The position numbers and the translations under genes are program-made. A stretch of 43,714 nt of DNA from positions 1 to 43,714 of the IMG/VR virus record IMGVR_UViG_3300049795_000032; one strand, 5' to 3'. Origin of the DNA: a virus. The notes beneath the pieces are model-generated. The model saw nothing but the letters and a program-made list of their open reading frames with translations. It did not search any database and had not been told where the DNA came from. Positions 1 to 43,714 of this stretch are shown here, piece after piece (the stretch's first letter is position 1; every line of letters starts with the position of its first letter).

Positions 1-127
1 AGCCTTGACGATCGGCTTATGCAGGGACATCGCGAACGCACATTCAATGTACGTTTCGTGTCCCGAGTAGTCCGGGTCCCATAAAAGCAAGACTTCTCGG
101 CCCATGTGCTCATCGGATGGCCTCCAA
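1..127. repeat. Terminal overlap, copy A (identical to 43588-43714). Indicates a circular or circularly permuted genome
   Basis: Read directly: the first 127 bases are letter-for-letter the same as the last 127 bases. Confidence 0.95.
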
Positions 128-3370: not shown

Positions 3371-3445
3371 TGGTTCCACGTCTAGGATTCGAACCTAGGT
3401 AAGCGAATTCAAAGTCCGCTGTCTTGCCAATTGGACGAACGTGGA
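3371..3445 (-). tRNA. tRNA-Gln (anticodon UUG) with encoded CCA
   Basis: Folded by hand from the reverse complement. Acceptor stem TCCACGT/ACGTGGA, D-loop AATTGGCA with GG, anticodon stem GCGGA/TTCGC, loop CTTTGAA (U33, TTG), T-arm CTAGG-TTCGAAT-CCTAG, discriminator A then CCA; 75 nt. Confidence 0.85.
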
Positions 3446-4668: not shown

Positions 4669-5051
4669 TTGTCCCCCGGGAGTGCTGCAGCGAGCAAGGC
4701 CCCTGCCTCTTTAGCGACTAAGTGCCGCACGGTGCGATTGAGGATATCCGCCACGCGCTCCCAAGGCGCTTGTGCTTTCTTGGACAAATCGGACCAACTA
4801 CCCGCGTCATTCGCCGTGCTTCGGAAATATGTGTCGTGTGCGATTTGGCCTAGGCTTCGTTGCTTACTGGACTCGCGCGAGAGTTGCTCCGTAGTCGCAA
4901 TGCGCTCCCACCGTTCTCGACCCGATGCGGACAAGCAAGCCCAATCCCGCGTCAGTACCGCTTCGGTCTGGTCGTACCAGTAAGCTCGGAATTTAATCTC
5001 CCCGGGGGACATGATTGCATCACTCATCGTCTTCGCCCTCTGCTTTGCCAC
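4665..5051 (-). CDS. Hypothetical protein (start uncertain: 5051, 5027 or 5012)
   Basis: 128-aa ORF. The longest form overlaps the helicase 3' end by 32 nt. Confidence 0.6.
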   Translation of the reverse strand: MAKQRAKTMSDAIMSPGEIKFRAYWYDQTEAVLTRDWACLSASGRERWERIATTEQLSRESSKQRSLGQIAHDTYFRSTANDAGSWSDLSKKAQAPWERVADILNRTVRHLVAKEAGALLAAALPGDK

Positions 5052-6792
5052 TCGACTTATCCCATCGCGCGCTTTGACGGGCGTATTCCCGCACTTCGCT
5101 CGGGGATGGAAGTACCAAATCTGCGATGAGCAATTTCTTACTCTCGCCCATGAGCTGCTCTGTCACGCGGCTGCGCTCAATGGCACGTTGCATGGCGTCC
5201 CAATGCTCGCGGCATCCTTGTAAGACGTCGAACGTCACTGTATCGGCCGACTGCCCCGGTCTATGCATGCGGCCGAGCAATTGTTGCCACGTGTCATGTC
5301 CCGTCGGGGGCGACGTCACTAGGCCCCGAGCCCATGCCTGCAGGTTCCGGCCCGTGGCGTTGGCTTTGATTGACGCGATGAGAGAGCGTTTAGGGTCCGC
5401 GTCAAAGATGGATTTGCCGCCATCGGTCAAACCCTGTTCGCCGTAATACTCCAAACCAGTCTGCTTAGCAAGCTCGCGAGCGAAAAAGCTATGCTCCGTC
5501 CACATTATGCCCGGTCCGCTCTTGGTGTCGGCCCACTTGGCACAGAGCTTTAGCGCGCTGTCATCGTGCCATACTGGGACACTGTTGATCGCGAACGTCG
5601 GGTGTCGACGATTCCACTCGTCCAGTAGTTCGCGACCCTGCATATGTCCGCCCTCGACGGCGTGACGTACCTGTAGCTCCGTGTCGAGGCTCCGTGAGTG
5701 TGAGAGCACTTCGCGCACGTACTTACCCCACGCCTTCCGCGCATCCATCCAAGGCACGGGAGGACGGGGAGACCACACGTAGTGCATGCCTAAAGCAAGC
5801 TGCCTAGCCGTGCGCCACAAGTCGACAGCCATCGTAAGCGCCCATCCATCAGGCGTTTCCCAAGTCGTGCGGAGGGTCGCGAAATTCGCCTCGGTCGCGG
5901 CGTTGACTTTATAGGTCATGCCACGAACAAGCAGAGAGCACGTAACATCCTCCCCGGGGGGTGACGCGACGTATCCCGGGGTATCGGCCAGGCGACGGCG
6001 GAACACCTTACGCGCTGCGCTATTGACGTCTGTGTCTCGATCGTCGGGGTGCGGGGGGTGGACCAACTCGAGTAAGGGCCCGGGGTGGACTTGTCGCAAG
6101 GGATTGAGCTTCGCACCCAAGCACTCGGACCATTCCATAAGCTCCCCCGTGTCAAAGGGGACGGGCGCATTGTGCTTGAGTGACCACGCCGCGATGTGCG
6201 CGAAATCTTCCAGATCATCTCGGTACAGCGTGCCACTAAGGCCCACGAAAAAGGTTTGGGGGCGCGCTCGCATGTAGCGGATGAATCGACGGGTGACGGC
6301 CGCTTTATTGTTCTTGACCTTGTGGATCTCGTCTCCAATGATCATGTCCGGTTGGACCTTGTCAAACCACTCCGCGGCGTTCTCGCGCCCGAGCGTTTCG
6401 TAAGATTGCATTTCGATGTATCGGGGAATCTGCCAGTGCATAGACAGCTCTGACATTTCCCGGCGGGTCTTTTCGATTAGGGACGCGGGCAGAAAGAGCA
6501 CGGGCCGGCGCGCTCCCACCATCGCAGGGGCGAGCAGGGTAATAATCGTCTTGCCTCCACCTACGTTGATTGCCCCGAGTAATCCTCGACACGTGGCCAG
6601 TTCATGCAACGCGATGGCTTGCAAGGGGCGAAGAGTCATCTTGCCCCCGGGCGTGCGAAGCTTGTGCGTGTAGTACGCCACGGCTTGCTGCGTCGTCGCA
6701 TCGTCCCACGCACGACGGGGCAAGGATCGAATGCGGTGGAAGTCCGCGCTCGCCTTTATCGTAGAGCGTGAGACGATGGACAGGGGTTGCAC
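5020..6792 (-). CDS. SNF2/DEAD-like superfamily 2 helicase
   Basis: Walker A GGGKTIITLL, DExH box GDEIHKVKN and motif VI QQLLGRMHRPGQ. 590 aa, GTG start. Confidence 0.8.
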   Translation of the reverse strand: MQPLSIVSRSTIKASADFHRIRSLPRRAWDDATTQQAVAYYTHKLRTPGGKMTLRPLQAIALHELATCRGLLGAINVGGGKTIITLLAPAMVGARRPVLFLPASLIEKTRREMSELSMHWQIPRYIEMQSYETLGRENAAEWFDKVQPDMIIGDEIHKVKNNKAAVTRRFIRYMRARPQTFFVGLSGTLYRDDLEDFAHIAAWSLKHNAPVPFDTGELMEWSECLGAKLNPLRQVHPGPLLELVHPPHPDDRDTDVNSAARKVFRRRLADTPGYVASPPGEDVTCSLLVRGMTYKVNAATEANFATLRTTWETPDGWALTMAVDLWRTARQLALGMHYVWSPRPPVPWMDARKAWGKYVREVLSHSRSLDTELQVRHAVEGGHMQGRELLDEWNRRHPTFAINSVPVWHDDSALKLCAKWADTKSGPGIMWTEHSFFARELAKQTGLEYYGEQGLTDGGKSIFDADPKRSLIASIKANATGRNLQAWARGLVTSPPTGHDTWQQLLGRMHRPGQSADTVTFDVLQGCREHWDAMQRAIERSRVTEQLMGESKKLLIADLVLPSPSEVREYARQSARWDKSSGKAEGEDDE

Positions 6793-7438: not shown

Positions 7439-8472
7439 CGGACCCCCTTGACGACCACGCCCGCGATCGGGAGCAAGGTATTGATCACTTGGGAAGTCTC
7501 GCGCGATGCCGTGCTTACGAGCAAGACGAGGTCACGATCGGCAAGATGCTTTCGCACTTCCTCCGTCACGTAATGCGCCAGCAGTGCGCCACCCTTGTAA
7601 TCGATGAATGCGTAATCCGCCACCTTATGATCGGCGAGAATGCGCGCGCCAGCGAGCTTGACGAAGTGGGAGAGATCTACGGGCTCGGCGTCGAATCCCG
7701 TCATCGGGTGCGCGTCGATCAAGATGGTAAAGCCCCCGTCCCTTTGGTCGTCTCCGATCTTGGGTGACGGGTCGCGCATCGTGACGATGGCCGTCATATC
7801 GGGGGCGGGGCCCGCGGGCATCACGATGGCCGGCGCGGCGGGCGCAGGGGCCGCCGCGTTCTTGGGCGGGCGTCCACGCCGCTTCGGTGCATCGGACGAC
7901 GCGGGCTGTCCGGGAGCAGGCGAGGGCGGGACGGGGTTGCCGATGCTCTCGGGGGGATTGACCGGGCTCGGTTGCGGGAGTTGGTACCCCGAGCCTTGCA
8001 TCGGGGCAGGCGCCATTTGCATCGGCACAGGTGCCTGGAATTGCGGGGCGGGTGCCGCGGGCGGGGGCGGTTGCTGCCCGGCGGGAGCCCACCCTTGCAT
8101 GCCAGCGGGAGGGGCCGCGAACTGTTGCGGCGCGGCCGCGAGGACGACTGGAGGGATCGGGGCTTGTGGACCGAACGCCGCGGGATTGGCCGCGTACTGA
8201 TCAGCGACGGAAGCCAAGAGATTGGCAAGCTCGATTCCGATCGTCCCACTGAGAGGGAAATAGGAATTCGTGACCTTGGGATTTGCTACGTGCTGCGTCG
8301 CCACAATCTGCGGCGGCAAGGGCTTGCCGTTGAGTGCATGCGTGATCTGACCCTGCGCGTTTCGCACGAACAGACCCGCGAGGGAATGGACTTGCTCCCC
8401 TGCGCCGGGGGAAGGACCTTGCATGGTGGCGGGGGTTGCTTGCGGGGCGGACAGTTCGTCAAAGAGCGACAT
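7435..8472 (-). CDS. Hypothetical protein with a long Pro/Gln/Ala-rich linker and an AT-hook (KRRGRPPKN)
   Basis: 345-aa ORF. Has a structured N-terminal ~100 aa, a ~140-aa low-complexity centre, a GRP AT-hook core and a C-terminal ~110-aa domain. Sits beside the nuclease gene. Confidence 0.7.
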   Translation of the reverse strand: MSLFDELSAPQATPATMQGPSPGAGEQVHSLAGLFVRNAQGQITHALNGKPLPPQIVATQHVANPKVTNSYFPLSGTIGIELANLLASVADQYAANPAAFGPQAPIPPVVLAAAPQQFAAPPAGMQGWAPAGQQPPPPAAPAPQFQAPVPMQMAPAPMQGSGYQLPQPSPVNPPESIGNPVPPSPAPGQPASSDAPKRRGRPPKNAAAPAPAAPAIVMPAGPAPDMTAIVTMRDPSPKIGDDQRDGGFTILIDAHPMTGFDAEPVDLSHFVKLAGARILADHKVADYAFIDYKGGALLAHYVTEEVRKHLADRDLVLLVSTASRETSQVINTLLPIAGVVVKGVR

Positions 8473-9274
8473 ATGATTTCAGGCTTTCTTCCGGTGATAG
8501 GTTGCACATGTGACGGTAAGCACAACCCCCGTACTTCTCGCACGATTCAGGGTTGTATGGTAATTGCTCGGCACTTGATACGGCATTGCGCCACGCATCG
8601 ATTTGCGCCGCTATGGCATCGATACGCGCAAATTCGGCGTCCACCCTACTGCGGTGGAGTGGCACCATGACGGCTTCGGAACGCTTAGGTCCCTTGCTTT
8701 GGATGTACTCCCACTGCCCGAGCGCGGCGTGCAGCTCGGGATACTTCCGAAGGACCCACTTGCCGTAAATATTGGCTTGTGGGTCCTCCAACAAATCCGC
8801 TTCCGTCTTAGCCCATTTGGCGATGCTCGACGTGGACTTGTGGTCTCCGATGAGCGCGCCACTATCACGGACCAAGTAGTCAATGCGCCCGGACCAAATG
8901 CGCGGCGCGTCGTTCAAGCGCTCGAAAAACGACAACTCCACGCTAAGCCCGGGGGACTTGGGCTCAGGTAGTAGGTGGAGCGCACCGGACACGCGCGCAG
9001 CCATATCCGGATCGTGCACGTGATCGATAGGCTCCCCGGTCTTGAGATAGTGCTCCACCATCTCGTGCATGCGGGTGCCCCATTCCGCGGATGCATTGGC
9101 GGGGCCCTTTATGCCGTTGAGTTTATCCCACCCCCATTTACGAGGGCAGTCCAGCCACGTCGAGATCTGTGACGCGCTGTACGCGTACGCGACGATATAG
9201 ACCGTCTCGGTCTCGTCAAGCGCAAACAGCCAACGCCCGTGCGTCCATTGGACGGCTGCGAAGGTCACGATCAA
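8459..9274 (-). CDS. Cas4/RecB-like PD-(D/E)xK exonuclease with a Cys cluster
   Basis: N-terminal Cys in SQISTWLDCPRKWGW. Nuclease core GRIDYLV...IGDHKSTS. C-terminal CEKYGGCAYRHMC, a 1+3 Cys pattern typical of the Cas4/AddB iron-sulfur nucleases. Confidence 0.75.
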   Translation of the reverse strand: MIVTFAAVQWTHGRWLFALDETETVYIVAYAYSASQISTWLDCPRKWGWDKLNGIKGPANASAEWGTRMHEMVEHYLKTGEPIDHVHDPDMAARVSGALHLLPEPKSPGLSVELSFFERLNDAPRIWSGRIDYLVRDSGALIGDHKSTSSIAKWAKTEADLLEDPQANIYGKWVLRKYPELHAALGQWEYIQSKGPKRSEAVMVPLHRSRVDAEFARIDAIAAQIDAWRNAVSSAEQLPYNPESCEKYGGCAYRHMCNLSPEESLKSYVAL

Positions 9275-9876: not shown

Positions 9877-12291
9877 TTGCATGGAGTCAAGTGGCCGTGT
9901 ACAGATTGCCGGGTGCGTGATCCGAGATGCCCGGGCGCAATCCCATTTCCAAAAACCGGCCCCATATACGGCTTGACAGCGGACGGGCTATGTGCCTGCA
10001 GCCGTCCGACCTGTGCGGGACCGGGCAAACACCAACGCCTATATGGTGCGCCTGTCGCACTGAACGGGGAGGGGTACGCGATTTATACAGGTGCGGCCGG
10101 TGAACACGGCTCCGGCGTGTTCGTGGTCGACTGCGACGAGAAGCCCGGCATTTCAGGGTTTGCTAATTTCCGAAATCTGTGCCTACAGCACGGCCACGAC
10201 ATCCCCGACACCCTTATGGTCGTCTCGGGGGGTGGAGGCGTTCATTTCTTTTTTCAAGCCCCGGAATTTCCAGTCAAGTCGTCAAAGTCGGGCGCGCTTG
10301 GCAAGGGGATAGATATCAAGGGCGAGGGCGGATACGTCGTCGGCCCGGGCAGTCCTCACAAATCAGGCAACGCGTATTACGTGTGGCGAGATGCGCCCGT
10401 GGCAATTGCCCCTAAATGGCTGCTCGATTGGCCGGGCCTACGTAGGACGTCCAAGACGATAGACGAGTTGGATCCATCCGACTTGGGTGCGTATGCCCCC
10501 GCATTTATTGACCCCTCCACCCCTGTAGGCGCGTTTCGCATTGCGTCGTTCGTCGCAGAGTGCAAGGGCGAAGCTGGCACCCTAAAACCGTCCATCGAAG
10601 GCGAGGGTGGGAGCGCGCGGCTCGTCCACGCCGCGAAGCGTGGAACGCTCTACTGGCAGATCGAGCCGGTGCTTTGCGCGGCGATCATGCTGGATCACTT
10701 CGTTCCCCGGTGCATCGATCGGGGGCGGCCGTGGACCCATGACGAAGTGCATCGCGCGTGCATCCGAGCCGTGCAAACGAATGAGGACGTATCCCCCGGG
10801 CCCATCCCCGACAATTGGGGTCAGGACCTTTTACGCGCGGCCATCACAGGGCTTACCCCCGCGCAGCTCGATACGTCCATAGCCCCTCGAGTGCCCGGAG
10901 AACACGCAGCGCATTGCACGTGCGGGGGCGGGTCAGAGCACCGCTACAAGATCAGGGCAGGGGAATCGATCGCCAACGGCAAGATATTGCCCAAGTCGTT
11001 TAGCGAATTGGTATTTTACCTCCATCGTCACCCTGATTGGCAAGGCGTGCTCCGATACGACGCGATGCATGAGCGCATTCGCGCGGTGCAACCACCGGTG
11101 CACTTGGACGGCGAGGACAATTTCGAGGGTGTGACCGAAGTGGATGTGGGCCGCGCCAAGATTTGGATGGAATGCGTGGCGGATGCGTCCGTTTCCTTTG
11201 ACGCGCTATGGCCAGCCGTGGAAGCAGCGGCCAAGCTACACGAATTCCACCCCGTCAAAGACTACTTCAACGCGCTACCCGCGGGCAATCCCCGAGTATT
11301 CGACACCCTCGCACACGAATGGTTCGGGGTGCCCAAGGATGATTTGCTCTCCCATGAGATGCTAAAGCGTTTCTTGGTCGCCTCTGTCCGTAGAACGCTA
11401 TGGCCTAACACCGATTTGGCCAAGGTGGATACGGCTTTGGTTCTAATCGAGCCTACGGGTGGCGCAAAGAAGACTACCTTTATCGATGCGATGTGGCACA
11501 GGGAATGGGCGGTACACCAATTGCCCAATTTCGATAAAGCCGCGGACATGAGTAACCAAATCTCCCGTAAGGCTGTTGCGGAATTCGGGGAGATCGAGCG
11601 CATTCTTAGGCAAGACCCCGAGACATTCAAGGATTTCTTGACTCGAGAGTGGGACGAATTCCGCCGAGCGTACGCACGTGACACGGTAGTTAAGCCTAGG
11701 ACGTGTGTGATCGTCGCAACGACTAATAAAGAGCGGTATGTCAGGTCGGATTGTGACGATGCCGTCCTACGTCGTCTATGGTCCATCCGCGTCCGTCGTA
11801 TCATTCCCTTGGACCTGGTCCGGGAAATGCGGGACGAGGTATGGGCCGCGGCCGTGGGTCTCGCACATGACTCGCAATTCCACCACTGGTTCGATAAGGG
11901 CGATCGGTGGGACGTGGCACTCATGTCCTTGCATAAACAGGATCACGTGCAGGAAGATACCTGGACGGATGACGTGCTCAATTACTGCATAGGTAAGACC
12001 TTCGTCACGGGTGCGGAAGTGTTTCGCTTCGCCATCGCCAAGGGAGATTTGAATTGGTTGCTCACCTACGGCCGGGATAAATCCGCGCAGTGGAAGGTCG
12101 GATCGTGTCTTCGCTCGATAGGTTGCGAGGAAGGTGTGACGCGGGACAAGTCGACGCAGCGCTTGATTCGAGGGTGGAAGGTCCCGGAAGCCGTGACCAA
12201 TGCACGGCCCACGGCGGATGCCCTGCGCGAAAAGACGATCACGGAGGGTAGAACCCTCTCGGTATTGACGAACGAAGCCAAAGGAGTATGA
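9877..12291 (+). CDS. Bifunctional primase-polymerase (PrimPol) fused to a D5/VirE-like P-loop helicase
   Basis: N-terminal motifs GYAIYTG...VFVVDCD, GGGGVHFFF and GIDIKGEGGYVVGPGSPH. C-terminal P-loop LIEPTGGAKKTTF followed by CVIVATTN. 804 aa. The TTG start is uncertain; GTG 9913 is an alternative. Confidence 0.8.
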   Translation: MHGVKWPCTDCRVRDPRCPGAIPFPKTGPIYGLTADGLCACSRPTCAGPGKHQRLYGAPVALNGEGYAIYTGAAGEHGSGVFVVDCDEKPGISGFANFRNLCLQHGHDIPDTLMVVSGGGGVHFFFQAPEFPVKSSKSGALGKGIDIKGEGGYVVGPGSPHKSGNAYYVWRDAPVAIAPKWLLDWPGLRRTSKTIDELDPSDLGAYAPAFIDPSTPVGAFRIASFVAECKGEAGTLKPSIEGEGGSARLVHAAKRGTLYWQIEPVLCAAIMLDHFVPRCIDRGRPWTHDEVHRACIRAVQTNEDVSPGPIPDNWGQDLLRAAITGLTPAQLDTSIAPRVPGEHAAHCTCGGGSEHRYKIRAGESIANGKILPKSFSELVFYLHRHPDWQGVLRYDAMHERIRAVQPPVHLDGEDNFEGVTEVDVGRAKIWMECVADASVSFDALWPAVEAAAKLHEFHPVKDYFNALPAGNPRVFDTLAHEWFGVPKDDLLSHEMLKRFLVASVRRTLWPNTDLAKVDTALVLIEPTGGAKKTTFIDAMWHREWAVHQLPNFDKAADMSNQISRKAVAEFGEIERILRQDPETFKDFLTREWDEFRRAYARDTVVKPRTCVIVATTNKERYVRSDCDDAVLRRLWSIRVRRIIPLDLVREMRDEVWAAAVGLAHDSQFHHWFDKGDRWDVALMSLHKQDHVQEDTWTDDVLNYCIGKTFVTGAEVFRFAIAKGDLNWLLTYGRDKSAQWKVGSCLRSIGCEEGVTRDKSTQRLIRGWKVPEAVTNARPTADALREKTITEGRTLSVLTNEAKGV

Positions 12292-12839
12292 TCATGTCTA
12301 TGGACCAAACCAAATTCAATTCGATCGTGTGTCTGAAATCCGGCTCGCATCCGAAGCCCCCGAACATGGACGAGCTCCCGCAAGAGGCTTGCGTCATGGA
12401 GGCCGTTGCTTGGATTACGGGGGATGTGTGGAGTGATGCCCCGATTTGCGTGCCCGAAACGATTGCGTGCGTGGCACGTAGTCTGAACGACTCAATAAAA
12501 GATGACGCGTTCCGCACGGAATTGTTGCTCCCGCTTATTCCTAAAATGCTAGGCTTGTCTAAGTCCCCCGCCTTGGAGTCGAAACGTGCTTACGTTGCGG
12601 CCAATTTCGTATTGCGTACGCTTATGCCCTCGCTAATGGAAGATATCGGGCAAATCTCTCTGGCGGAGCAATACAGGTCCATTCCTGAAATTGTAGATTC
12701 TCAATCCGCCGCCCGTGCCGCCGCCCGTGCCGCCGATGCGGCCGCCGCCTATGCCGCCGCCCGTGCCGCCGCATGTGCCGCCGCCGCCGATGCGGCCGCC
12801 CCGAAAAAGTATCACCCCATGTGTGAGGTATCCGAATGA
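12288..12839 (+). CDS. Hypothetical protein with an alanine-rich periodic C-terminus
   Basis: 183-aa ORF. ATG 12294 is better placed relative to AAAGGAG than ATG 12288. The C-terminus is AARAAARAADAAAAYAAARAAACAAAADAAA. Confidence 0.65.
   Translation: MIMSMDQTKFNSIVCLKSGSHPKPPNMDELPQEACVMEAVAWITGDVWSDAPICVPETIACVARSLNDSIKDDAFRTELLLPLIPKMLGLSKSPALESKRAYVAANFVLRTLMPSLMEDIGQISLAEQYRSIPEIVDSQSAARAAARAADAAAAYAAARAAACAAAADAAAPKKYHPMCEVSE
12707..12802. repeat. Imperfect 12-nt periodic GC-rich repeat (gccgcccgtgcc and gccgatgcggccgcc units)
   Basis: Seen directly. Encodes the Ala-rich tract and generates a spurious poly-Gly ORF on the opposite strand. Confidence 0.8.
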
Positions 12840-13366: not shown

Positions 13367-13705
13367 CTAAGGTGGCAGGCGAACATTTGCGCCTTGCGTA
13401 AGCCCTTGGCCGCGATCTTTGCCACTTCCAAATCCTTCATACCATACTGCCCCGCACATGGCTCGGGCGTGTTCGGAACGAATGGACGCAAGGCGCTGGA
13501 AGTACGTTTGCGCGTCCATGCACGCTCTGCATTGTAGATCGTAACAGACCATCACAGGCATGTGCTTCTGCGGTTGCGTGACGTCACGGCTCCACTCATA
13601 CAGCACGGCACATATGCGCTGCTCAGCCACGCATTTGACCTGCAAATCCGTCATTGCGTGGACTTGGTACGCGCTTGGACCGGGGTGGGAGAACGGGTAG
13701 AGCAT
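13367..13705 (-). CDS. Hypothetical Cys-containing protein; lone leftward gene abutting the iteron array
   Basis: Track ORF 13367-13732. ATG 13705 (MLYPFSHPG...) is preceded by GGAGG with an 8-nt spacer. Confidence 0.55.
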   Translation of the reverse strand: MLYPFSHPGPSAYQVHAMTDLQVKCVAEQRICAVLYEWSRDVTQPQKHMPVMVCYDLQCRACMDAQTYFQRLASIRSEHARAMCGAVWYEGFGSGKDRGQGLTQGANVRLPP

Positions 13706-13780
13706 AACGGTAACCTCCATGTATGGGAGCAATAGCGTGTCACGGCTTTGGAGTCAAGCTTTGGGTCGAAATGCTTCTGG

Positions 13781-14101
13781 CACCTACATAGTAACCGTAA
13801 CAACCGTAACGCCTAACCGTAACAGAATTTACTTTCCTTTTCCCGAGGTATCTTGATCTTGTTACGGTGTTACGGTTGTTACGGTTAGTTGGAGAAGACT
13901 ACCCCGGCACTCCTCCCCAAATGTATTTAAGTATTAAGAGAAATAAATACACAGAAGTCGCGCGCCGTGACGTGCCGGGGGACTTTGCCAAAACTAACCG
14001 TAACAACCGGAACACCGTAACAAGATCGAAAAACACCGAGAAATAGAAAGTCAAAATCTGTTACGGTTATGTTACGGTTAGTTACGGTATTTATGTAGGT
14101 G
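13781..14101. repeat. Origin-like iteron palindrome: 12 copies of the octamer ACCGTAAC/GTTACGGT in two ~108-bp inverted arms around an AT-rich core
   Basis: ACCGTAAC at 13794, 13803, 13816, 13997, 14006 (degenerate, ACCGGAAC) and 14014. GTTACGGT at 13861, 13869, 13878, 14060, 14071 and 14081. The outer ends cacctacata (13781-13790) and tatgtaggtg (14092-14101) are complementary. Confidence 0.85.
13918..13956. other. AT-rich core at the dyad centre of the iteron palindrome (candidate DNA unwinding element)
   Basis: aaatgtatttaagtattaagagaaataaatacacagaag, in an otherwise GC-rich genome. Confidence 0.5.
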
Positions 14102-14369
14102 CATGTAGTTATTCGCTGAAATGCTACGTTTGGACGGAAAGATAAATCGATGGCGGATCCTGTGTGGCGGAACGATTTTTCGCGTAATGTTCGCATTACA
14201 CTCGGGGAGTGTGATTTTACGTTCACACTTGGCATTATTTTGACCCTATCGAGATATGACTCCGTTGTCATAGCGGAAACCTCGGGAAACCATTTATTTG
14301 ATTTATTTGCTATGACAATGGTGTCAGGGTTCAAAGGCTAGGACATTAGCGTGACGCGGCTTTGCTCGC

Positions 14370-15012: not shown

Positions 15013-15591
15013 ATGGCCAATGCAGCTCTGACCGATTCCATCCGCGCCGCGGGTGACAAGTTTTTTACCGCGCTCAAGCCCTCGTTCGGAGACCTCGTCA
15101 CGAAGGACGGCGAAAAGGTGGACGTGGGCGCGACGAAGCGCGCGATGTTTTACGCGCTCAAGTCCTACCTTCGTAGCACCGGACAGATCGCCACTCGCGC
15201 GCCGATCGCGCATAGCGTCGATTGGGCGGAAGTAATCAACGCGGCCGTTACCACGTTCGCGAAGCAGGCGACGGACGCCGCGAGCAGCATCGAAATGATG
15301 GCCGTGTGCTACGGCGCAGTGAGCGAGCTGCAACCGAGCTTCGCGGATTACCAGAAGGTTCAGAAGCTCGTGCACGAGGCGCTGCTTCGCCCCGAAAGTC
15401 CTCTCGAGATCTACAAGCCCGGAAAAGGCGTGGGCGCGAACCTCGTCAGGATCAAGGCAGATACCAAGCTGCCCAAGCCCCACCCGGTCAAGTTGTGGGC
15501 CGATCTGACGGCGGGAGCGTCGGACGACGGCGAGCCCGAAGCGCCCAAGGCGGAAGCGACCAAGGGTAAGGGTAAGGGCAAGGGCAAGTGA
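15013..15591 (+). CDS. Hypothetical protein with a (KG)n C-terminal tail
   Basis: 192-aa ORF ending in KGKGKGKGK and followed by a strong hairpin terminator. Confidence 0.7.
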   Translation: MANAALTDSIRAAGDKFFTALKPSFGDLVTKDGEKVDVGATKRAMFYALKSYLRSTGQIATRAPIAHSVDWAEVINAAVTTFAKQATDAASSIEMMAVCYGAVSELQPSFADYQKVQKLVHEALLRPESPLEIYKPGKGVGANLVRIKADTKLPKPHPVKLWADLTAGASDDGEPEAPKAEATKGKGKGKGK

Positions 15592-41135: not shown

Positions 41136-41290
41136 GGCCAAATCCTCCCGAACGCCAGTCCTAGCAATATGCCCGCACCCAACGCCATGATCCAAATGAA
41201 CAGACGCTCCGTCCAATGCTTTTCGAGGCAGCGGCATCGCTCGTCCCCTAAGACAATCTCGTCACAATCCTTGCACCAACGCACTCTCAT
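41132..41290 (-). CDS. Hypothetical 52-aa zinc-ribbon plus TM microprotein (below track cutoff)
   Basis: MRVRWCKDCDEIVLGDERCRCLEKHWTERLFIWIMALGAGILLGLAFGRIWP. ATGA overlaps with the TerL stop and the MazG-like start. Confidence 0.45.
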   Translation of the reverse strand: MRVRWCKDCDEIVLGDERCRCLEKHWTERLFIWIMALGAGILLGLAFGRIWP

Positions 41291-42816
41291 CCGAGTAGCT
41301 CCCTTTCGAGATTGTCCACTGCGTCTTTCATGTCAGGAATAAAGGTCATGTTAGAAGCCGCATACTCTAGCGCCTGTGAGGTGCTGTCCACCTGATCGTC
41401 ATGCGCCGCGCGTGGGAACCCTATAAGCTCGGTTTCATAGTCGTGCGCCCATACCGCCGCGTACTCGTTACCCGTGTCAGGGAAAAATACGTTACCTGCC
41501 CTGAACACACCTTGCACGGCCATGGCGCGCGTGACCTTGCTGTCCGCGCCGGGCGAATATGGAACCATGCCAGGGACGACGCGCTTTAGGGTGGACATGA
41601 TAGCGGGCCCGTTGGCCTTGTCCTCGATAAGAATCGTGTGAGCCTTAGGCCATTTCGCCGCGAAGCTCTTTACCTCGTCCACGAGATCCGCGAATTCGAG
41701 GCGCCGCCGCACCAAGTCTATCAGGGAGAATTGCGCGCCCGCTACGTACCAGCAAGTACCCACGCACCAATCGGAGCCGTCCGTGCCCTTGAAAGAAAAG
41801 TCCCAAGACTGGAGATAGAAACCGTCAGAGGGCAGAGAAGATTTGACTCGCCCTTGATACGTGTAGTCGTCCACTGTAGCGGGGGAGAGCGTCCAGCGCT
41901 TGAATGTCTCGGCTTTGAATATGGAACCGCCGGGGGGAACGGGGTTCTGCCCGTACTGCGCGGAAACGACGGTCGGATCGTTGTTAGTTTTTATTTCTTG
42001 AATGACTGTAGGGGTAAAGCGCTCTTGCCAGAATGACTCGCCTTCCACCGCGCGCGGGTCTTCCCATCCGATGGACGTAGAGAACGTCTTACCTGTGTAC
42101 TCGAGAGGGATGCACACGTGCTCCCATCCGCTTTCGTGTGCCAGCACGTGGCCCGAAAGATCGTTCTCCGCTACGCGTTGCATGATGATGCCGGTGCGGC
42201 GCACGCGATGATCGCCGCGGGAGGCCATCGTTGTTTGCCACCAATTGACTACCTCGTCCAATGACAGCTTAGTGACGTTCTTAGGCTTGATAGGATCGTC
42301 AATTACGCGGTTCAGGGGGTGGCGCCCCGTCGTTTTACCGTCCACCGAAGTGGAGAAGCGCCAACCACCCGTAGGCTGGCCGTGCGCGTCGTACACGTTG
42401 AATTCGCCCACGCCGTCATTAGGATCCAAGCGAAACAAATCGCTCCACCTGGCTTGGAACCAAGGCGAGGATATGAGTGTTTGCACCTTGCCCGCGTCTC
42501 GCTTGGTGAGCAATCCGTCGAATGACGTATAAAGGAAGGTCTCCGCAGGGTTGCGGAGCCATGCCCACGCGTTCCACAGCACGCTAACGACGTTGGATTT
42601 GCCCGAGCCCGGCGGGACGTTGAATATCACGTTACGCAATTGCCCGGCCGTCATCGCTTGGAGGTGCTCGGCTATACATGCGACGTGCCAATTGTCCATG
42701 TAAGGCGCGGCAGGTTCGATAACGTGCCAGGCTTTAGAGATGAAATAGTGTAGAGAACGCCTACCGCGCTCCCTCTCAATCTCGATCAAGTGCTCTTCTA
42801 CGGTACGCTTACGCAT
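41287..42816 (-). CDS. Terminase large subunit
   Basis: Walker A-like FNVPPGSGKSNVV and Walker B-like NRVIDDP. Nuclease-domain acidic motifs ILIEDKANG and AAHDDQVDS. 509 aa. Confidence 0.85.
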   Translation of the reverse strand: MRKRTVEEHLIEIERERGRRSLHYFISKAWHVIEPAAPYMDNWHVACIAEHLQAMTAGQLRNVIFNVPPGSGKSNVVSVLWNAWAWLRNPAETFLYTSFDGLLTKRDAGKVQTLISSPWFQARWSDLFRLDPNDGVGEFNVYDAHGQPTGGWRFSTSVDGKTTGRHPLNRVIDDPIKPKNVTKLSLDEVVNWWQTTMASRGDHRVRRTGIIMQRVAENDLSGHVLAHESGWEHVCIPLEYTGKTFSTSIGWEDPRAVEGESFWQERFTPTVIQEIKTNNDPTVVSAQYGQNPVPPGGSIFKAETFKRWTLSPATVDDYTYQGRVKSSLPSDGFYLQSWDFSFKGTDGSDWCVGTCWYVAGAQFSLIDLVRRRLEFADLVDEVKSFAAKWPKAHTILIEDKANGPAIMSTLKRVVPGMVPYSPGADSKVTRAMAVQGVFRAGNVFFPDTGNEYAAVWAHDYETELIGFPRAAHDDQVDSTSQALEYAASNMTFIPDMKDAVDNLERELLG

Positions 42817-43429
42817 GGGGACACGAATGCTCGTCGCCTTTACACTTCCAGCAATAGAGATCCTCAGCCACGTCTACAATTTCCGTCGCTTGTTCGCGCA
42901 ATGCGTCAACTAGTTCCAAAGCTTTACGGGGGTCGCAACGAAGCAGCTCACCTAATTCTTTGGGTGTCGCGCCCTCCCATGCTGCGATCAAGGCTTCCAA
43001 CTCTCGGGGGTGGAGATCTCGCACGACACGGCGCACCGTCCTACGGGCTTCCGCGCGTTCGGCCCCTACCTCAGTCTGCGAGTTGTCACGCCGTGAGCCG
43101 TCCAACGGACCGTAAAGGCAATCGGCTGCGTCATTCTTGGTCAGTTTATTGCGCGACGTGGATACGCCTTTCTTTAGGCGGATGCACTCTTGTATGCGGT
43201 AAAGTACCTTCCACTTGGCGTAGGAGTAGAACCCTCCCTTGTCGGGCTGATAATTATGGAGCGCCTCAATCAACCCAATGGCGCCTTCCTGCGCCAAGTC
43301 CTCATAGTCCGAGCCTTTAGCGAAGCGGTGCACGATATTGTGCACTATGCGCATATTGTCGAGGACGAGTTTATCTCTCAGCCTAAGGCTTCCGGTGCGT
43401 CGCCATTCGAAAAAAACGGATTTGTCCAT
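42809..43429 (-). CDS. Sigma-70 family RNA polymerase sigma factor
   Basis: Region 2 reads DLAQEGAIGLIEALHNYQPDKGGFYSYAKWKVLYRIQECI. Region 4 HTH reads LHPRELEALIAAWEGATPKELGELLRCDPRKALELVDALREQ. C-terminal CWKCKGDEHSCPH. Overlaps the TerL start by 8 nt. Confidence 0.8.
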   Translation of the reverse strand: MDKSVFFEWRRTGSLRLRDKLVLDNMRIVHNIVHRFAKGSDYEDLAQEGAIGLIEALHNYQPDKGGFYSYAKWKVLYRIQECIRLKKGVSTSRNKLTKNDAADCLYGPLDGSRRDNSQTEVGAERAEARRTVRRVVRDLHPRELEALIAAWEGATPKELGELLRCDPRKALELVDALREQATEIVDVAEDLYCWKCKGDEHSCPHA

Positions 43430-43482: not shown

Positions 43483-43692
43483 TCAGAGGGGGAGGCTAAG
43501 CGCAAAGCGGATGGCATGAGCGATGTTCGGGCACCGGAAAAGCTTGGCATAGACGTCCATTGACAGGGGGACACGCTCATGCTGGCCAGCCTTGACGATC
43601 GGCTTATGCAGGGACATCGCGAACGCACATTCAATGTACGTTTCGTGTCCCGAGTAGTCCGGGTCCCATAAAAGCAAGACTTCTCGGCCCAT
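43483..43692 (-). pseudogene. Nucleoside 2-deoxyribosyltransferase-like / DUF4406-like gene, 3' part in the -1 frame relative to the 5' part
   Basis: REVLLLWDPDYSGHETYIECAFAMSLHKPIVKAG resembles the C-terminal S/G-x-E...A...KP motif of this fold. The N-terminal GIYIAAPY part is encoded at 227-128 in another frame. Confidence 0.45.
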
Positions 43693-43714
43693 GTGCTCAT
43701 CGGATGGCCTCCAA
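43588..43714. repeat. Terminal overlap, copy B (identical to 1-127)
   Basis: Read directly. Confidence 0.95.

Follow-up and report, generated by a model that had tools for sequence, protein, structure and literature searches.

A nested palindrome of twelve iterons as the probable replication origin of an uncultured myovirus-like phage encoding a PrimPol-VapE helicase

We analyzed a viral DNA of 43,714 nucleotides (IMG/VR record IMGVR_UViG_3300049795_000032; this whole stretch is referred to as the window) in which an array of twelve octamer repeats, or iterons, lies within an imperfect palindrome at positions 13767-14115. This array is probably the replication origin of the phage, of the type known from Staphylococcus aureus pathogenicity islands (SaPIs) and satellite phage P4, with the iterons being read by the phage's own PrimPol-VapE protein. 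We favor this reading because of the anatomy of the array, the instability of its center, the homology of the protein to a proven iteron-binding, self-loading initiator, and a family-wide link between the PrimPol-VapE gene and such arrays. A preliminary description of the window had proposed an origin with iterons read by the phage's own primase-helicase, and among the explanations weighed here this one is the best supported.

Architecture of the octamer array

Scanning both strands of the whole 43.7-kb window, we found 11 exact copies of the octamer in its two orientations (ACCGTAAC/GTTACGGT), all of them within 13794-14088 and none outside these positions. The chance expectation for ACCGTAAC in the whole window is a mean of 1.17 copies; among 100 dinucleotide-preserving shuffles of the window the maximum was 5 copies, and 0 of 100 reached 11. 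A further copy at 14006 is degenerate, being one base off (ACCGGAAC), so that the twelve octamers counted in the preliminary description, one of them degenerate, are all accounted for. Outside the array, one-mismatch octamers occur 33 times, compared with about 26 expected for the whole window, which is the background level. Alignment of the 12 copies extends the iteron consensus to 10 bp, (T/A)A-ACCGTAAC-A. A literature search for the octamer returned primers and unrelated sequences only.

The copies fall into four triplets, within which the octamers are spaced 8-13 nt from start to start, and they are split 6 + 6 around the center in such a way that each half holds both orientations. The parts of the candidate origin are as follows.

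13767..14115, no strand: whole origin candidate, an imperfect palindrome of about 350 bp with its center near 13941 (inverted repeats I1 and I2 and arm alignment)
13794..13823, + strand: outer-left iteron triplet, ACCGTAAC at 13794, 13803, and 13816 (exact matches and extended consensus)
13824..13860, no strand: left spacer, 37 nt, about 35% G+C, mirrored by the right spacer (inverted repeat I1)
13861..13885, - strand: inner-left iteron triplet, GTTACGGT at 13861, 13869, and 13878 (exact matches)
about 13915..13958, no strand: AT-rich center, candidate DNA-unwinding element, inside the non-palindromic middle at 13906-13975 (23% G+C, least stable duplex)
13997..14021, + strand: inner-right iteron triplet, ACCGTAAC at 13997 and 14014 and degenerate ACCGGAAC at 14006
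14022..14059, no strand: right spacer, 38 nt, reverse complement of the left spacer (inverted repeats I1 and I3)
14060..14088, - strand: outer-right iteron triplet, GTTACGGT at 14060, 14071, and 14081 (exact matches)

The two arms are near-identical as reverse complements. Their symmetry pairs 13767 to about 13905 with about 13975 to 14115 and takes in the spacers, whose 37/38 nt are conserved between the arms in the arm alignment, as well as the outer flanks; only the central 70 nt or so (13906-13975) are asymmetric, within a triplet-free center of 111 nt. This confirms the earlier view of the arms as imperfect reverse complements and extends the symmetry beyond the 13781-14101 originally noted. 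An Rfam scan of the array region found no RNA family. The large palindrome also raised the possibility of a protelomerase or telomere-resolution site, which we dropped because no such gene was recognized among the 30 predicted proteins scanned and the center is not palindromic.

The center of the array is unusually easy to melt. Positions 13920-13959 have a G+C content of 23%, compared with 58.5% genome-wide, and, going by nearest-neighbor energies, no other 40-bp stretch of the genome is less stable than the one starting at 13919 (-43.0 kcal/mol, against a mean of -60.9 and a standard deviation of 4.0). The AT-rich core that had been pointed out before is thus the weakest duplex that the phage possesses. 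Genome-wide, the ten weakest 40-bp windows also include the two arm-spacer windows that start at 13824 and 14041. We observed no DnaA box (TTATCCACA, at most 1 mismatch) near the array.

Homology of the PrimPol-VapE protein to a SaPI initiator

The protein that we propose as the initiator, and the part of it that we propose as the iteron reader, are encoded upstream of the array.

9877..12291, + strand: PrimPol and VapE-type superfamily 3 (SF3) helicase, 804 residues, proposed initiator (Pfam Prim-Pol PF09250, 2e-23; VapE-like, 3e-37)
11959..12201, + strand: C-terminal domain of the initiator, residues 695-775 or so, proposed iteron reader (AlphaFold model, predicted local distance difference test score about 90, element order H-b-H-H-b-b, as is canonical for a winged helix)

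The helicase half of this protein is a homolog of SaPI1 Rep1, whose structure was deposited as PDB entry 7PDS under the name 'Similar to D. nodosus vapE'. A profile made from the protein and eight relatives matches 7PDS over the helicase half with an E value of 6.8e-46, and the single sequence does so with an E value of 2.9e-12. When an AlphaFold model of residues 345-804 was compared by Foldseek, it matched all six 7PDS chains (E about 1e-15, template modeling score 0.58), and the structural alignment, at about 450 of about 455 residues, spans the entire Rep chain with its C-terminal domain. Searched by itself in Foldseek, the C-terminal domain has winged-helix proteins as its top matches (TFE-alpha, PadR, MarR, FOXO, and Cdc6), none of them significant (best E 0.018). 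No close homolog of the initiator was found in cultured phages, the best match there having 26-28% identity across about half of the protein.

Repeat arrays accompany the PrimPol-VapE gene in relatives

Metagenome assemblies contain relatives of the PrimPol-VapE protein at 37-44% identity, and soil and peat metagenomes yield more distant ones; some of these genes are located on contigs of metagenome-assembled genomes labeled Polyangiaceae, Myxococcales, or Gemmatimonadaceae. The locus searches used an alignment of 9 sequences, an alignment of 16 being too diverse, and a search for loci in viral contigs with the single protein returned nothing. At least 15 of the relatives that we fetched carry a short-repeat array downstream of the PrimPol-VapE gene, with about 10 distinct repeat motifs among them. 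Relatives that keep the same replication gene therefore do carry equivalent arrays, a point on which the preliminary description had let its proposal depend, and the repeat sequence varies by lineage.

In close relatives the gene order is syntenic (nuclease, PrimPol-VapE, small genes, gap, protease, cement, capsid), and an equivalent non-coding node with a palindromic repeat array lies between the leftward block and the rightward structural genes. In distant homologs, the array begins within about 0.4 kb of the stop codon, and in L122, L124/125, L131, L140, L146, L153, and L259 it is immediately downstream of the gene, as in SaPIs. The repeats are listed here by locus, first the five syntenic relatives (L121, L289, L287, L258, and L291) and then the distant homologs.

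L121: TGTAAYGG on the left (three copies plus an inverted one), with CCRTTACA mirroring it on the right
L289: CGTTACA, 11 copies, in the same nested-palindrome layout
L287: CGTTAC, 6 copies
L258: GGATCCATTGG/CCAATGG, in a 450-bp palindrome
L291: AAAACAG
L124/L125: five GCAGAGG at a 10-nt period and, beyond a center that contains an A+T run, four CCTCTGC
L122: ATCGGATAC, in both orientations around a 130-bp AT-rich core
L131: CCTCACC/GGTGAGG
L140: GGCCAAC
L146: GGATCA, 11 copies
L153: TGTCAC/GTGACA around an AT-rich center
L259, L206, and L135: TAGGAAC

As a crude count, we determined how often the most frequent 7-mer occurs within 700 bp past the stop codon and compared this with control windows of the same locus. 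By this measure L122, L124, L125, L131, L140, and L146 exceed 94-100% of their control windows, and the phage's own array is the genome-wide maximum. An iteron of the CGTTACA type is common to P0001, P0005, and P0006, proteins with near-identical putative recognition-helix regions; in the remaining lineages the protein and the repeat are both different.

Only two genes appear, by comparison of the loci, to be constant partners of the arrays: the PrimPol-VapE gene itself and the adjacent nuclease gene, which in tblastn has matches in more than 40 related loci and is the sole other gene that consistently accompanies PrimPol-VapE in relatives.

8459..9274, - strand: PD-(D/E)XK nuclease (Pfam PDDEXK_1, 2e-15)

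This conclusion follows from the small genes not being conserved and from the patchy occurrence of another neighbor. The small genes flanking the array have no homolog in any related locus and therefore cannot be a conserved partner of it. In two relatives the array is adjoined by a leftward gene for a 190-residue protein (L121:7856-8437 and L287:7118-7690, both on the - strand; 67% identical between the loci), which by eye has a helix-turn-helix-like N-terminus and a Cys-rich C-terminus. We rejected this protein as the array binder, given that L289 and the window both lack it.

Comparison with known replication origins

SaPI Reps are self-loading replicative helicases that double as initiators, and they bind short iterons via a winged helix in the C-terminal domain (PMC9371898). 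SaPI origins lie just downstream of rep and consist of 6-12 iterons around an AT-rich center, with half of the iterons on each side and at least 2 per side in opposite directions; two Rep hexamers probably self-load (PMC9371898). Given the homology between SaPI1 Rep1 and the helicase half of PrimPol-VapE, and given that the array fits the published SaPI origin almost point for point, the closest known system is SaPI Rep/ori (SaPI1 Rep1, 7PDS; SaPI5 PriRep5, 7OLA) and not P4. The two systems share a homologous initiator with a VapE-type SF3 ATPase and a C-terminal domain, an iteron number in the range of 6-12 (here 12, 11 exact and 1 degenerate) split evenly around an AT-rich center, and opposed iterons, which in the window take the form of inner triplets reading GTTACGGT on the left and ACCGTAAC on the right with both orientations on each side. 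Both lack DnaA boxes and a separate loader gene, and as in SaPI5 a primase of the archaeo-eukaryotic (AEP)/PrimPol type is fused to the helicase. They differ in that the origin described here appears to belong to a complete 43.6-kb tailed phage and not to a satellite island, so that the origin type is common to both and the element type is not. Moreover, the iterons are octamers with a 10-bp extended consensus, whereas those of SaPIs are penta- or hexamers; their four triplets build a nested palindrome that includes two conserved spacers of 37-38 nt; and the array sits 1.5 kb from the gene at a divergent node, whereas the SaPI origin immediately follows rep.

The origin octamer of P4 is TGTTCACC, and P4 also relies on crr, a further repeat-bearing site at a distance of several kb. 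The preliminary description had likened the array to P4, and the likeness holds for the octamer repeats in both orientations and for the combination of primase, SF3 helicase, and C-terminal winged-helix origin binder (predicted here) on one polypeptide. It does not extend to the primase or to crr, and SaPI Rep/ori is closer. The P4 alpha primase, whose winged helix binds the origin repeats, is of the Toprim (bacterial) type (PMC4234260), whereas the N-terminal domain of the window protein is Prim-Pol (PF09250, 2e-23). P4 needs crr, whereas the window has no octamer outside the array and one-mismatch copies only at background. PDB searches with the PrimPol-VapE protein likewise gave no sequence match to P4 alpha.

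PrimPol-SF3-winged-helix proteins are also found in pRN1 (ORF904) and in BPP-1/BIP-1-type phages, where a stem-loop origin lies 3' of the gene; the pRN1 origin is about 100 nt long and is described as being without iterons (PMC4234260). The window resembles these systems in having a PrimPol, an SF3 helicase, and a predicted winged helix, with a large palindrome or stem-loop downstream of the gene. Folded as single-stranded DNA, the 349-nt region forms a single long and very strong hairpin of -107.6 kcal/mol (z = -18.4 relative to shuffles), which would suit an origin in which an extruded hairpin or cruciform of the 350-bp palindrome is what the initiator recognizes and the octamers are mainly building blocks of the symmetry. 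However, the repeat clusters of L140, L135, and L129 show little or no long-range palindrome, and therefore the repeats, not the symmetry, are the conserved feature. In addition, the pRN1 origin lacks the iterons from which, twelve in number, the 350-bp palindrome is built around an AT-rich, non-palindromic center, and the closest solved homolog of the initiator is an iteron binder. We thus consider recognition of the stem-loop quite unlikely. A hybrid origin that needs both iteron recognition, as in SaPIs and P4, and extrusion of a long hairpin or cruciform, as in pRN1 and BPP-1, with each arm acting as its own loading unit, is somewhat easier to entertain, and we rate it as a long shot nonetheless.

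Plasmid theta origins of the iteron type, for example those with RepA/pi-type initiators and DnaA-assisted unwinding, typically contain DnaA boxes; the initiators are no helicases themselves, and the usual form of the iterons is a direct repeat of 17-22 bp. The array is like an iteron plasmid theta origin in placing repeated initiator sites next to an AT-rich unwinding element, and unlike one in having no DnaA box nearby.

The same octamer in unrelated gut phages

We scanned viral contigs with an octamer-pair pattern. Most matches are one-strand runs of period 6 resembling (GTTACG)n (L051:1132-1490, L033:5892-6125, L090, L047, L111, and others), which are probably coding dipeptide repeats unrelated to iteron arrays. 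The same scan was the source of a family of low-G+C gut-phage contigs that carry the same GTTACGGT/ACCGTAAC octamers in arrays flanking an AT-rich core of about 100 bp. These arrays are found at the following positions, and also in L108, L062, L045, and others.

L070:6401-6650
L003:7559-7810
L087:6230-6470
L106:745-990
L046:1-290
L118:1000-1260

The gut-phage arrays follow the gene for a PrimPol and D5-type helicase at a distance of 0.9-1.6 kb and closely precede a small regulator-like gene, terS, and terL. Their helicase is homologous to SaPI5 PriRep5 (7OLA, E 5e-38). We detected no protein similarity between this family and the window, nor any pairwise similarity between its helicase and the window protein, and judging from these comparisons the gut phages do not seem to be relatives of the phage studied here. 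An identical octamer thus appears to serve two different Rep families, both with origins of the SaPI type. Chance suffices to explain this coincidence, there being about 33,000 possible octamers and very many phage origins; a constraint on winged-helix reading, or an exchange of reader domains, could instead be responsible. A reader domain common to the gut-phage and window proteins was dropped as a supported claim, since hhalign of the C-terminal domains gave a probability of 3%.

Genes around the array and alternative functions

The first and last 127 bases of the window (1-127 and 43588-43714) are identical, which is the signature of a circular assembly and gives a genome of 43,587 bp. To judge from its gene content, the virus is a complete myovirus-like tailed phage and not a satellite, encoding capsid, sheath, portal, terminase, and DNA polymerase. 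A DNA similarity search against cultured phages returned nothing. The genes that matter for what follows are these.

229-2412, - strand: family-A DNA polymerase
5020-6792, - strand: DEAD/SNF2-like helicase
13367..13705, - strand: leftward orphan gene adjoining the array, with a GGAGG ribosome-binding site before its ATG at 13705 (open reading frame and ribosome-binding site in sequence)
from 15739, + strand: head protease, cement protein, major capsid protein, tail sheath, portal, and Mu-F-like protein
41287-42816, - strand: large terminase, 27 kb from the array
42809-43429, - strand: sigma-70 region-2 protein, directly upstream of the large terminase gene (Pfam 5e-11; PHROG 'RNA polymerase sigma factor' 3e-19)

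The array lies at a node of divergent transcription between the leftward gene and the rightward genes. From the stop of the PrimPol-helicase gene (12291) to the first octamer (13794) the distance is 1.5 kb, as had been stated before, with three genes in between. The array had also been placed in the only sizeable gene-poor stretch of the genome. This is plausible for 13733-14369, since the remaining low-ORF stretches in a six-frame map of open reading frames (ORFs) are all shorter than 300 bp; the claim is partly checked, and one homolog-less ORF of 135 codons (13927-14334, - strand), the only open frame in this stretch, runs through the repeats. The leftward gene 13367-13705 has no Pfam or PHROG match and no homolog in any related locus; for the latter reason we rejected its product as the octamer binder, and the gene is probably not part of the origin machinery.

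Given its position, the array could be an operator only, on which a regulator of the phage, be it the initiator, the product of 13367-13705, or some other small protein, controls the divergent promoters of the leftward gene and of the rightward late genes while replication starts elsewhere. The divergent layout recurs in L121, L287, L289, L291, and L258; a one-mismatch iteron, ACGGTAAC, at 13707-13714 separates the GGAGG ribosome-binding site of the leftward gene from its start codon; and a sigma-like factor is among the phage's own gene products. However, many distant relatives have the array right behind the initiator gene, in a co-directional setting and not at a divergent node, the neighboring small genes are not conserved, and a sigma-70 promoter scan found no sigma-70-like promoter inside the array. 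Twelve sites around the least stable duplex of the genome are origin-like, not operator-like, and a purely regulatory array is in our view unlikely. Under the preferred reading of the array as an origin, iteron binding might, speculatively, affect the flanking promoters as a secondary role, because the array lies between divergently transcribed gene blocks.

Pac sites and plasmid centromeres also have short repeats in both orientations around a central site, and the array could accordingly serve in packaging, as a pac/cos site, or in partition, as a centromere, with a terminase small subunit or a ParB/ParR-like protein as its binder. It sits just upstream of the structural gene block, and the leftward 190-residue protein with the helix-turn-helix-like N-terminus adjoins the arrays of L121 and L287. 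This protein is missing from L289 and the window despite the same type of array, and the large terminase is 27 kb off on the other strand. A Pfam scan of 30 predicted proteins found no integrase, repressor, ParA/ParB, ParM, or protelomerase families. Across relatives, moreover, the arrays go with the helicase gene and not with packaging genes. A packaging or partition site is thus very improbable. The preliminary description had listed operator, partition, and packaging functions as alternatives to an origin, and each of them, though conceivable as a secondary role, has less in its favor: partition and repressor genes were not found in the scan, the terminase is distant, and the flanking genes are not conserved.

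Several further features were observed in these regions. A 21-nt direct repeat (CAATAGCGTGTCACGGCTTTG/CATTAGCGTGACGCGGCTTTG, 86% identical) at 13730-13750 and 14344-14364 brackets the whole non-coding region; each copy adjoins the start of a flanking gene, which makes the two of them possible promoter or regulator sites. In the interval from the array to the first rightward gene there is an 18-nt inverted repeat (14257-14326, 89% complementary) whose loop holds ATTTATTTG twice in tandem; it is a possible terminator or operator. A conserved protein with a KGKGKGK tail, which may be scaffold-like, is encoded at 15013-15591 (+ strand), immediately before the head protease gene, and is also present in L121 (9426-10016), L287 (8405-9007), and L289 (7606-8217). 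The 183-residue product of 12288-12839 (+ strand) has an Ala-rich, low-complexity C-terminus and a match to the Pfam family Psu (phage polarity suppression) with an E value of 0.0014, below the gathering score. A gene for tRNA-Gln with anticodon TTG (3371-3445, - strand) lies among the leftward early genes.

Proposed mechanism and evidence against it

In the mechanism that we favor, the predicted winged helix at the C-terminus of PrimPol-VapE would recognize the twelve (A)ACCGTAAC(A) iterons, and the protein would assemble on both sides of the center, most simply as two hexamers, one per six-iteron half. The AT-rich center (about 13915-13958) would then be melted without a separate loader, the SF3 rings would load onto the single strands, the N-terminal PrimPol domain would make the first primers, and synthesis would be handed over to the phage DNA polymerase A (229-2412), with the origin presumably firing in both directions. 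The steps that follow iteron binding are modeled on the SaPI system and on the stability profile. It is possible that loading takes place at the arms and not at the center, since each arm consists of three iterons, an easily melted 37-nt spacer, and three inverted iterons.

A number of points weigh against an origin of this kind. Binding, melting, and origin activity are all things that we infer. The C-terminal winged helix rests on predicted topology and, as the fold match of the domain alone is not significant, is consistent with the models rather than proven by them. The array is separated from the initiator gene by 1.5 kb and three genes and is not immediately downstream of it as in SaPIs, and its site is also a divergent-promoter region. 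Among the relatives, only six loci stand out together with the window in the 7-mer count, representing 4-5 independent sequences since L124 and L125 have the same array. The remaining arrays, with 3-4 exact copies each, were recognized by eye and are not outstanding in that count, and L123 has only three widely spaced copies of GTGTAAC. Finally, the cumulative GC skew, which the preliminary description had put forward as a check, lends the site no support: the curve bottoms out at about 3.4 kb, peaks at about 39.4 kb, and has no inflection at 13.9 kb, and the skew keeps its sign across the array. These turning points track the switch of gene orientation, and we take GC skew to be uninformative for a 43-kb phage: it is weak evidence either way and does not amount to a refutation.

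Implications

The initiator family and the logic of its origins are already established. What is new is the host range, in that the system is found in what appears to be a complete uncultured myovirus-like phage, together with the nested-palindrome layout of the octamers and their displacement from the gene. The analysis provides a concrete candidate pair of origin and initiator for a group of uncultured myovirus-like phages of about 42-44 kb, and it would place the SaPI-type design, a self-loading helicase plus an iteron origin, in complete phages far outside staphylococci. Given that a single protein family is paired with about 10 repeat motifs, the relatives gathered here offer a ready means of deciphering how DNA is recognized by the predicted C-terminal winged helix. 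The 350-bp fragment and one gene together constitute a candidate minimal replicon.

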